From assembly GCA_964016885.1 (NCBI GenBank), contig OZ024756.1, positions 28,458,001-28,522,000 of the forward strand: DNA of 64,000 nt, read 5' to 3'. This document shows, in pieces, positions 3,162 to 63,138 of this stretch (position 1 is the first letter of the stretch; every line of letters begins with the position of its first letter). Origin of the DNA: Eledone cirrhosa (lineage: Eukaryota). The notes under the pieces were generated by a model. That model saw only the letters and a program-made list of their open reading frames with translations. It ran no database searches and was not told where the DNA came from. The translations under genes and the position numbers were made by a program.

Positions 3162-3216
3162 CTGCCTGAAGAGGTCACAGCCAATGATGGCTGTCACCGA
3201 AATATATATATAGCAG
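3162..3216 (+). ncRNA. Type I minimal hammerhead ribozyme (Penelope-type)
   Basis: ctgc CTGAAGA ggtcacagcca-atga-tggctgtcacc GAAA tatatata TA gcag; all core nucleotides and three stems are present. Confidence 0.75.
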
Positions 3217-3634
3217 AAAATCTATAATTTATAATAAACGAAGCCATATTTTACATATTTGACTTACTTATTTTATATATATATATATATATATATATAT
3301 ATATATATATATATATATATATATATACACACAGTCTGATAATTCTTGACTGAGATGAAACTAGCCAATCTCTGTGAGGAATAATCATATCATCAATTCC
3401 CCCAATAAAAATATATATACTCTACACATGTATCGAGTTCACTTTATTCTAGAGATAGCCATCTCTAGTATTATATGTATGTGTGTGTATGTGAGTGGGT
3501 GTGCATTCACATATATATATATATATATTTAGAGAGAGAGAGGGAGAGAGAGAGAAAGAGAGATAGAGAGTGACTAGTTACTAGTTATTAAATCATATAA
3601 ATATTGCAATAATAATAATAATAATAATAATAAT

Positions 3635-4440
3635 AGTTTCTGATTTAGGCGCAACGCCAGCAATTTTGGAGGGAGGGGAAAGTTGATTAAATCAACCCCA
3701 GTACATTACTGGTACTTTATTTTATCGACTCTGTAAGGATGAAAGGCAAAGCTAACCTCGGCGGGATTTGAACTCAGAAAAAAAGAACCGTAACTCTATG
3801 CCACAAAGCATGTTGTTCGATGCTCTACTGACTGTCAATCCACTGCCCTAATAATAATAATAATAGTTTCTACATTTGCCGCAAGTCCTGCAAGGGGAAG
3901 GGAAAGTGGATTAAATCGACCCTAGCACTTCACTGGTATTTTATTTCATTGACCTCAGTAGGAGGAAAGGCAGAGTTCACCTTAGCAGAGTTTGAACTCA
4001 GAACATAAAGTGCTGTAACCAAATACTACAAAGCATTTTAATCGACACTCTACTGATTCTGCCAAACCACCTCCCTCAATAATAATAATTGTTTCTACTA
4101 TAGGAACAAGGCCACCAATTTTTGGGCAAAGGGAAAGTCGAATAAATTGACACCAGTGCTAAATTGATGTCAATTTAATCGACCCCGTAAGGATGAAAGG
4201 CAAAGCTAACCTCTGCGGGATTTGAACTCAGAATGCAAAGGGACGTAACTCTACGCCGCAAAGCATGTTTTCCTACGCTTTGCCAATTCTGCCAATTCAC
4301 CACCCTTATAATAATAATAATAATAATAATAATAATAATAATAATTGTTTCTACATTTGGCACAAGGCCAGCAATTACCCAGTACATTACTGGTACTTTA
4401 TTTTATCGACCCCGTAAGGATGAAAGGCAAAGTCAACCAA
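3635..4440 (-). mobile_element. Cluster of tRNA-derived SINEs (family A). Further copies at about 10780-10940, 27310-27425, 27790-27965, 29028-29244, 32894-33205, 43085-43268, 43568-43860, 52120-52505, 57945-58160
   Basis: A-box tggcagaatt/gtcgg, B-box gagttcaaatccc, core actttgcctttcatccttacggggtcgataaaataaagtaccag, (att)n tail. Confidence 0.85.
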
Positions 4441-4521
4441 TAATAATAATAATAATGATAATAATACTGATAAATTTATATAGGTTTCTGTCAGTGATAA
4501 AATGGTGAAGACGTGGTGCCG

Positions 4522-4797
4522 TTAACTTTGCACAATCTCTTGGAGTACCTCCGTACTGGCAGTGATGTCCTGTAACTCTGCACTTTGTACATCCAACGTG
4601 GTCTCTCCAGCGGCAATCTGTGTTGTCTCTTGAGGGGTAACATACTGAATAACAAACTGGTTTCCAGCAAGTTCCTGATTTGCATCTGACACAAGCACTT
4701 CTTGGCCTTCTTCCTGTACGATGATGGTGTCGGGGTTCACAGTGACCATCTGACCACTCTCTGACTGAACAGTAATCTGTTGTTGACCAAAGGCTCC
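4522..4797 (-). CDS. ZFAT: ZFAT last coding exon (GAFGQQQITVQSESGQMVTVNPD...EIVQS*)
   Basis: ttttaacag acceptor; Q/V/T-rich tail; ORF 4522..4749. Confidence 0.8.
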   Translation of the reverse strand, partial: GAFGQQQITVQSESGQMVTVNPDTIIVQEEGQEVLVSDANQELAGNQFVIQYVTPQETTQIAAGETTLDVQSAELQDITASTEVLQEIVQS

Positions 4798-61523: not shown

Positions 61524-61845
61524 GCATATGGCTTATTGGTTAGAGCATTGGGCTTGCAATTGTGAGGTTGTGAGTTCGATTCTCAGACTAGGTGATGTGT
61601 TGCATCCTTAAGCAAGACACTTTATTTTGCTTTGCTCCAGTTTACTCAGCTGTAGAAATGAGTTGTGATGTCACTGGTGCCAAGCTGTATCGGCGTTTAC
61701 CTTTCCCTTGGACAACATCGGTGGCGTGGAGAGGGAAGACTGGTACACATGGGTGGCTGCTGGTCTTCTACAAACAACCTTGTCTGGACTCATGCCTCGG
61801 AGGAGAGCTTTCTAGGTGCAAATCCCATGGTCATTCGTGACAAAA
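61524..61845 (+). mobile_element. tRNA-derived SINE (family D), plus copy. Others at 51240-51655, 54600-54750 and 11733-11870
   Basis: A-box tggcttattggttagagc, B-box gagttcgattc. Confidence 0.85.
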
Positions 61846-62424
61846 CAGGATCTTTATATATATATATATATATATATATATTGAAAAATATGAACTGAAT
61901 TTCATTATTTTGACATTCAAATAGAAAAAACAAAATCAAAGACAACTTTGAAGATATTGTTATTTTTATGCTGTCTTTTTATCTAGAAGATGTATTTATT
62001 TTTATTTTTAATTTCGTATTTTCAAAATATTCTTTTCTAGATCTGTCTTTTAGATCTGATTCATCAGAATTTTTTTTATGGGTCTATATTTTGAGAATCT
62101 GATATATATATATATATATATATATATATATATATATATATATATATTGTTTTTTAAAGAAAAAAAATCAATAAAAAAACAAAACAGACTTTAAACATTT
62201 TAATCAAACCACCCCCAGAAACCTCCTCTCAGATATATCTCATTCGAGTCCTAAATAAAACTACATATGTATGAGCTGTAAAAGAATATGTAAATTTTAT
62301 ATTTTTTATTCAAAAATATAAAGATGTAAAAAAAAAAATTTATTTTTGATGAATATTAAATATATATGTATATATATATATATATATATATATATATATA
62401 TATATATATATATACATATATATA

Positions 62425-62758
62425 TTATAAAGAAAACGAAAAATCAGTGATGCATCTGGACTTAATTTATGCGTGTTACAATTGTTTCTCCGGCAGGTAG
62501 CTTGAGACGTGGTCCTTGTATGGATCTGGCTGATTCTACTTTTGCAGGTTCATTCAGTCACGAGTATTTCGTTAGGAGCAAATTTTATCAGTCATAAAAT
62601 TTGCTCCTAACGAAATACTCGTGTCTGAAAGAACCCGCAGAAGTAGAATCAGCCGGATCCATACAAGGACCACGTCTCGAGCTACCTGCCGGAGAAACAA
62701 TTGTAACACGCAATAAATTAAGTCCAGATGCATCACTGATTTTTCGTTTTCTTTATAA
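62425..62758. repeat. Long inverted repeat, 164/165-bp arms, 5-nt loop
   Basis: 62425-62588 is the reverse complement of 62594-62758 with about 7 differences. Confidence 0.97.
62620..62710 (+). ncRNA. Hammerhead-like motif with 8-nt core and long stem II
   Basis: cgtgt CTGAAAGA [61 nt; ccgcag..gtag pairs with ctacctgccgg] GAAA caattg TA acacg. Confidence 0.5.
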
Positions 62759-62975
62759 CATCTACACTCTACTCTGATGAATATCGAGTGCTAATTTTGG
62801 CATACCGCCTATGGAAGCACCTTAGCTACCATTATACACAACTACATATATATATATATATATATATATATATATATATATAACCAAATATTAATATGGT
62901 TCGTTGATTAATCAACGAATACAATTTTACAATAGATTAGAAGCACTCGACAAGAGATTTTCATGGAGTATTTAA

Positions 62976-63138
62976 TATTATTCAAAATGTTAATAAATGA
63001 AAAATATTCTCATAATCAAATATATATTTTATTATACATATTATGAAAACATACACCATTGTACCTTTGGAATATGTATAATAAAATATATATTTTGATG
63101 ATGAGAATATTTTTCATTTATTAACATTTTGAATAATA
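62976..63138. repeat. AT-rich inverted repeat, ~67-bp arms, 28-nt loop
   Basis: tattattcaaaatgttaataaatg... / ...catttattaacattttgaataata. Confidence 0.9.

Follow-up and report, generated by a model that had tools for sequence, protein, structure and literature searches.

Background

The closest described relatives of the elements treated here are the endonuclease-positive (EN+) Penelope-like elements (PLEs) of the Hydra clade, whose marks, as given in section 11 of Craig et al. 2021 (PMC8557442), are an RWK-type motif, a DKT motif and a CxCX5C linker; for one of them, Hydra-1_Obim of Octopus bimaculoides, the same source records a preference for (TA)n targets (File S1) and a hammerhead ribozyme (File S2). 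We analysed a stretch of 64,000 nucleotides from Eledone cirrhosa (GenBank assembly GCA_964016885.1, contig OZ024756.1, positions 28,458,001 to 28,522,000 of the forward strand; hereafter the window), for which an initial annotation had described a dispersed system of fold-back insertions with hammerhead ribozymes. Its elements resemble the Hydra-clade PLEs of PMC8557442 in an RWK-like motif (RWR here), DKT, CxCX5C and, at the C terminus, a GIY-YIG domain, as well as in (TA)n targets, a type I hammerhead near the 3' end, an inverted 5'-truncated copy and a one-sided tail. Unlike those PLEs, which have tails of 30-40, they have tails of ~55-130 nt, and several families coexist. Since the layout, the hammerheads and the preference for (TA)n have all been published before, this is not a new system; what the analysis adds are counts of how the ends of paired arms combine, and an odd ribozyme core. 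The counts suggest that both ends of a cut (TA)n tract probably prime reverse transcription, each at its own fixed site on the RNA.

Two further systems bear on this reading. Penelope of Adineta vaga shares with our loci the head-to-head inverted pseudo-long terminal repeat (pLTR), an optional tail and palindromic junctions, a layout that Arkhipova et al. 2013 (PMC3846280) read as self-priming, whereas the staggered and non-overlapping pairs found here point to two primed ends. For Poseidon of Anolis carolinensis, which shares with our families a use of AT-rich targets, the in vitro results of Frangieh et al. 2024 (PMC11167929) show cutting and extension of both strands, reverse transcription starting at two internal points that bound the tail, and uncut RNA as the template. 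How PLEs come to be inserted in tandem and inverted form is listed among the unsolved questions by both PMC8557442 and PMC11167929.

Fold-backs of the window and their repeat families

Self-BLAST of the window with simple repeats masked returned local inverted matches at all eight places where fold-backs had been annotated, with e-values from 2e-15 to 8e-148 (24418-24782, 35979-36080, 44509-44785, 48942-49153, 50458-50646, 54099-54208, 62425-62758 and 62978-63136). On folding, 64-96% of the bases in the insert spans are paired. The (TA)n flanks and the density of about one insert per 8 kb that had been reported also hold within the window, where (TA)n adjoins the majority of outer insert ends. 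The elements also nest within one another's TA tracts. The description of the inserts as unique did not survive, in that every one of them has many genomic copies: the eight fold-backs and two unfolded inserts fall into nine multi-copy families (A-I). First-look candidates, which are not copy numbers, amounted to 3110 for A (query at 62590), 67 for B (50458, a 73-nt query), 1725 for C (24600), 701 for D (44735 and 35923), 1036 for E (49045), 2471 for F (54155), 1857 for G (62885), 2045 for H (3060) and 583 for I (52660); the best 40 per search were scored and 20-30 retrieved as loci (numbers prefixed L below).

The families counted for their ends (A, C, D, F and G) have a 3' end fixed at (TA)n and a variable 5' truncation. 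Each uses two fixed end sites, a short site S1 and a second site S2 lying ~55-130 nt downstream, so that an arm ending at S2 carries a tail that the short arm lacks. In query numbering S1/S2 fall at ~170/254 in A, 107-114/241 in C, 54/112 in D, 57/137 in F and 86/176 in G. The majority of the copies in the window are decayed or truncated, and the palindrome at 50461, which is formed by an extra sense copy (50458-50529) beside a non-overlapping family B pair, is tail-to-tail, unlike the other seven fold-backs. The inserts and their motifs are, in order:

3042..3278, + strand: family H stub, Hydra-linked and one-armed, ending in (TA)n at the short site
Core 3166-3172 with GAAA 3199-3202, + strand: intact type I hammerhead motif of family H
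24412..24840: family C (Hydra) insert; short arm 24412-24516 (-), tail arm 24612-24840 (+)
24517-24622, - strand: additional inverted internal piece of the family C insert
24638-24657: hammerhead motif (U3-A8) of the family C insert, 3' half only present
25011..25067, - strand: tail-only piece of family F with a (TA)n tract on each side; missed initially
35923..36080: family D insert; tail arm 35923-36031 (-), short arm 36024-36080 (+); the truncation stops short of the hammerhead
44041..44255, + strand: additional (tenth) hammerhead-bearing repeat end with core at 44078 and relatives in loci L010 and L071; missed initially
44506..44840: family D insert (canonical EN+ PLE, non-Hydra); short arm 44506-44737 (-), which extends 190 nt further 5' than the tail arm 44737-44840 (+)
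44661-44703, - strand: G5A-damaged hammerhead in the short arm of this family D insert; missed initially
48872..49401: family E insert (canonical EN+ PLE, non-Hydra) in an SLC35C2 intron; head-to-head arms 48872-49038 (-) and 49033-49152 (+), the latter interrupted by another repeat and continuing near 49355-49401
50444..50700: family B insert in an SLC35C2 intron; short arm 50537-50660 (-), tail-only arm 50662-50700 (+)
52612..52838, + strand: family I stub in an SLC35C2 intron, old (~80% to relatives); minimal hammerhead with stem III damaged
54096..54291: family F (Hydra) insert in an SLC35C2 intron; short arm 54096-54150 (-), tail arm 54144-54291 (+), both beginning within loop II of the U3-A8 hammerhead
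62419..62844: family A (Hydra) insert; short arm 62419-62590 (-), tail arm 62589-62844 (+)
62620-62709 on the + strand: hammerhead-like motif of family A with an 8-nt core, present in both arms
62882..63139: family G insert; tail arm 62882-63042 (-), short arm 63043-63139 (+); the truncation falls inside the family hammerhead

Six families are joined to Penelope-like coding frames

PLE frames for reverse transcriptase (RT) and GIY-YIG were found joined to six of the nine families, four of them (A, C, F and H) of the Hydra clade and two (D and E) of other canonical types, as assigned by motifs and tblastn. In family A, locus L056 contains a pLTR, RT, GIY-YIG, a long low-complexity untranslated region and a second pLTR, and thus has a pLTR on both sides of the open reading frame (ORF) in a partial tandem; in family F the pLTR of L305 similarly runs into the start of an ORF, and further coding links lie upstream in L151/L215. 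The ORF of family C ends ~600 nt upstream of it in L075, L077, L080, L083 and L085, and L212-L214 are also ORF-joined; the links for H, D and E were found in L223, L216-L218 and L219-L221, respectively. RWR and DKT are present in families A and F, and the CxCX5C linker in A and in the frames of C itself, with DKT in an adjacent frame of L070. Family H is assigned to the Hydra clade by similarity to Hydra-like probes alone, while the D and E frames did not show the DKT/CxCX5C marks and match non-Hydra probes (L097, L104, L090). The Pfam GIY-YIG model scored below cut-off on the local pieces and above it on the homologue P0081, and the Pfam RT model gave no match to the Hydra-like frames. Kilobase-scale inverted insertions with ORF sequence, each with one short and one tail end, were observed at L217:2164-6581 and L212:3436-5973.

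The inserts of the window thus represent 3' ends, truncated on their 5' side, from no fewer than nine repeat families, of which six are joined to PLE frames. The linkage to RT/GIY-YIG frames, the inverted pLTR with its one-sided tail and the (TA)n ends bear out the PLE origin and microsatellite targeting that had been proposed. Given that six families run into their own coding frames, their inserts are truncated ends of coding PLEs and not demonstrated retrozymes, and the label of non-autonomous or retrozyme-like is not supported for these six, although it may apply to the three families at 50461, 52725 and 62976. PLE frames in antisense adjoin the family in 2 of the 20 loci of G and in 2 of the 25 of B. 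An attempt to reach an ORF of family G through the upstream stretch of L200 was abandoned, as it matched an unrelated nested repeat, with G in 1 of the 20 loci, its source. Separately, a GIY-YIG remnant with 64% identity to the family D probe was noted at L230:600-875, ~7 kb before the start of the window.

Pairing of the two end sites

When all loci are taken together, adjacent head-to-head arms consist of one S1 and one S2 end in 96 of 97 pairs; in the lone exception (L305) an S2 arm stands next to a copy that continues into the ORF. As the first-round queries mostly held the tail and were blind to S1+S1 pairs, three tail-free searches were added. Among the 84 distinct loci of these tail-unbiased searches there was no S1+S1 pair, 35 had adjacent S1+S2 arms and 4 had S1+S2 arms at wider spacing; put differently, 35 of the 36 adjacent pairs were mixed, and the remaining one consisted of S2 with a read-through copy. 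Were the site chosen independently for each arm, at most half of the pairs would be mixed, which argues against independent insertion. Because the RNA extends past S2 into the ORF, both S1 and S2 are internal to it.

We compared the inner ends of 89 pairs, of which those at L006 and L027 may represent one duplicated locus. The S1 arm reached further 5' in 21 pairs and the S2 arm in 25, the two ended within 10 nt of each other in 37, and in 6 the arms had no overlapping sequence at all. The non-overlapping pairs and those with the longer short arm indicate that neither arm is a plain copy of the other. As inner ends vary from copy to copy and six pairs form no hairpin, the hairpin is made afresh at each insertion and is not carried along, contrary to the idea of deposited ribozyme-plus-hairpin modules. 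At most head-to-head junctions the arms abut to within a few bases. Inner truncation points cluster at q0-7 in A, q-41 to -49 in C (the 5' hammerhead box), q-8 to +3 in F (loop II) and q-87 to -89 in G, and likely reflect RNA structure or self-complementary joins.

The arms of a pair also share rare variants. Non-majority bases outside CpG were common to both arms at 0.0111 in family A against 0.0014 in permuted pairs, with corresponding values of 0.0032 and 0.0007 in C, 0.035 and 0.011 in D, and 0.0115 and 0.0018 in G. Sharing is thus 3-8 times the permuted level in these four families, a value reached in at most 3 of 2000 permutations.

Proposed mechanism and its alternatives

We consider it probable that, once a (TA)n tract has been cut, reverse transcription is primed from both of the resulting ends, at two internal positions of the RNA that are fixed. 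The endonuclease would cut both strands within the tract. Short TA microhomology would then let one target end prime at S1 and its counterpart at S2, the template being a single RNA or two sibling RNAs. The complementary DNAs (cDNAs) would stop independently of each other and their 3' ends would be joined, giving an antisense left and a sense right arm with a one-sided tail; the hairpin would be a by-product of the overlap between the two cDNAs. The hammerhead, upstream of S1, would lie in RNA that is likely copied uncut. In L1 twin priming, too, both target strands prime and inverted products are joined, with a deletion or overlap, but the internal position taken by the second primer varies. 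Unlike in L1, both priming sites here are fixed and near the 3' end, and the cDNAs would hence overlap into a hairpin.

Several observations weigh against two-end priming. Poseidon shows no difference in start site between strands in the in vitro results of PMC11167929, whereas the ends here almost always differ. Junction microhomology is not general, with an overlap of at least 2 nt in 24 of 97 junctions and extra or unaligned bases in 54. A partner within 1.5 kb was lacking in 44 of the 84 tail-unbiased loci, some of which run off the retrieved stretch while others are plainly one-armed. Gene conversion between arms could also explain the shared variants, and family F has no excess of them (0 in 410 sites). 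The 50461 palindrome and the extra piece at 24517-24622 require further events, families B, G and I yielded no PLE frame in their search loci or in 5 of 5 extended loci, and the sampling of candidates was limited as described above.

An alternative that we regard as rather unlikely keeps the PLE origin and derives the inverted arm from self-priming or fold-back, involving either an antisense template or the first cDNA itself, with the endonuclease resolving the product at a fixed site and so leaving the one-sided tail. Such a route has been proposed in PMC3846280 and, for the tail, in PMC8557442; it would suit the 37 pairs with inner ends at most 10 nt apart at family-specific spots, and the arm-shared variants equally fit one arm having been copied from the other. 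It sits poorly with the six pairs without overlap and with the 21 in which the short arm holds sequence missing from the tail arm, as in the window at 44506-44840, where the short arm reaches further 5'. The S1+S2 pairing, the staggered and non-overlapping arms and the shared rare bases, taken together, favor two-end priming over self-priming.

That the inserts are non-autonomous retrozymes or short modules, with a master copy holding ribozyme plus hairpin and being moved in trans, appears quite improbable. A derivation of animal retrozymes from the pLTRs of PLEs has been reported (bioRxiv 10.64898/2026.07.22.740005), and in the retrieved loci of B, G and I, for which no ORF was found, the common upstream sequence stops within 310-545 nt. 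Against this stand the six of nine families that reach their own ORF, the copy-to-copy differences of the inner ends, and the window inserts themselves, none of which shows a tandem array of the kind that non-LTR retrozymes form from non-coding units with a hammerhead in each. Two independent insertions at one target hotspot, homogenised later by gene conversion, would find some precedent in the nesting of elements in one another's TA tracts and in the 50461 tail-to-tail palindrome, which resembles such an origin, but are made highly implausible by the nearly uniform mixing of unbiased adjacent pairs and the closely abutting junctions.

Hammerhead motifs

A predicted type I hammerhead motif was detected at family level in all nine families. 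It is canonical in B, D, G and H, and minimal with a weak stem I in E and I. Left unconstrained, the family F majority adopts a three-way junction in which the core is U3-A8 and stem II is long, and its motif is kept across 30 loci, with position 7 variable in relatives; the family C motif likewise has U3-A8, with ~75 nt between the boxes (an earlier reading of it as CCAAUGA...GAAAC was dropped once the U3-A8 motif appeared). Family A, one abundant family, carries an unusual hammerhead-like core of 8 nt, CUGAANGA, within a predicted motif that has a 5-bp stem I, a palindromic stem III and a GUA site. This core reads CUGAAUGA in 28 of 52 arms and CUGAAAGA in 19 of 52, and the variable base falls at the expected N7, supporting its interpretation as a putative hammerhead. 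These motifs share with the minimal PLE hammerheads of Cervera and de la Pena 2014 (PMC4209133) the type I topology, the palindromic stem III, an unpaired base before stem II, the U3-A8 covariation (seen there in Schistosoma Cercyon) and the occurrence of opposite-strand pairs, 100-700 bp apart in that account. They differ from those described there in that the stem II regions of A, C and F are 50-75 nt long and the CUGA.GA box of A holds one extra base; neither U3-A8 with a long stem II (C, F) nor an 8-nt core (A) is among the rows examined of File S2 of PMC8557442.

The individual cores reported earlier fared unequally. Of those in unfolded inserts, 3166 is an intact type I motif, while 52725 has lost the stem III pair. 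Of those within arms, 50487 keeps its core intact but has a weaker stem II, and G8C is found in its mirror copy; at 49064 the GAAA has become TAAA, though both core boxes survive in the mirror copy at 49025 (-); and 62625 is the non-canonical 8-nt core common to family A. Among the GTTGAAAC half-motifs, the one at 54166 is indeed a ribozyme half, a CpG-decayed GTCGAAAC; the other three are not parts of a ribozyme, that at 24767 lying within the tail, downstream of the real motif of family C, and those at 35969 and 44791 in antisense.

With a structure descriptor, three strong motifs with a 7-nt core (3166, 44078 and 50487) were found in the window against 0.06 per dinucleotide shuffle, and none of 100 shuffles reached three. 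For the 8-nt core, one match compares with 0.07 per shuffle, and since 7 of 100 shuffles reach one, the case for it rests on conservation within the family. Only 3166 and 44078 pass the strict descriptor, the relaxed one adding 50487 and 62625, and a first version, which required a 10.1-11.1 pair and 3 bp in stem II, missed 50487 and all of family C. The Rfam scan of the window gave no hammerhead family at E <= 1, just microRNA matches driven by microsatellites. A plain count of CTGANGA..GAAA (17 against 5.2 in shuffles) was discarded as a test, as 6 of the matches come from a 41-bp satellite at 6555-8242. This is one of four minisatellites in the window, the others being at 19740-20370 (48 bp), 38616-39863 (48-50 bp) and 63256-63794 (50 bp). 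In the flanks of the retrieved loci the descriptor found 211 CUGANGA and 60 UUGANAA matches, duplicates included, with many further hammerhead families, and a second 8-nt-core motif, unrelated to family A, gave 2 matches in these loci.

Host gene and RNA editing

Part of the window is occupied by a gene whose identity is supported by one exon with 92% identity to SLC35C2 of Octopus bimaculoides and 91% to that of Argonauta hians:

48161..60797, + strand: host gene SLC35C2, coding exons near 48161, 50006, 51103, 53630, 55613, 56749, 58953, 59441 and 60711

Four inserts (48860, 50461, 52725 and 54096) are intronic; those at 62425 and 62976 lie beyond the last SLC35C2 coding exon found. The annotation had placed sense ribozyme modules in these introns, which is correct as to the four inserts, but the sense-strand hammerhead motifs are all damaged. 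As three of the intronic inserts are hairpins, the fold would form on either strand. Octopus has been described as having a high potential for double-stranded RNA (dsRNA) together with hyper-editing, and a lizard as editing its Penelope heavily (PMC5625713); PLE hairpins would be a plausible source of dsRNA for editing. The genomic copies bear no editing imprint overall (sense A>G 173/24433 against T>C 226/25589), family D alone leaning toward A>G. Three sequencing runs cover the introns, behave as DNA of one sample and give nothing on editing or empty sites.

Other repeats and frames

At 61228-61855 a repeat that we take to be a tRNA-like SINE (short interspersed nuclear element) forms a head-to-head pair with arms 77% alike, both ends in (TA)n and a right arm ~28 nt longer, so that a repeat that is not a PLE is laid out like one. 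Among 77 matches in the retrieved loci there was no further head-to-head pair of it, and such pairs of SINE-like repeats are rare there. A palindromic pair at 16833-17257 belongs to a TTAACCCTTT-ended repeat family with many copies in the window, and at 54321-54461 SINE-like ends stand tail-to-tail around a (TA)n tract. Multi-exon C2H2 zinc-finger frames occupy ~9000-21550 on the minus strand.

Implications

We found no description of the S1+S2 rule or of the CUGAANGA core in the openly searchable literature, which includes part of the PMC8557442 supplement. Counts of S1+S2 from abundant young families with sharp ends separate competing models of integration, and yield the prediction for the in vitro PLE system that the two target strands should start at different sites on the RNA. 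A wider proposal, to which we give even odds, is that a fixed division of labour between the two cut ends accounts for the inverted pLTR and the one-sided tail in all EN+ PLEs, in place of self-priming, with thousands of hairpins as by-products that possibly feed the adenosine-to-inosine hyper-editing of octopods, and that the predicted hammerhead of one abundant family is active with an extra core base. Transcription of the intronic hairpins, should it occur, would make PLE stubs a self-contained source of dsRNA in a lineage with high hyper-editing.

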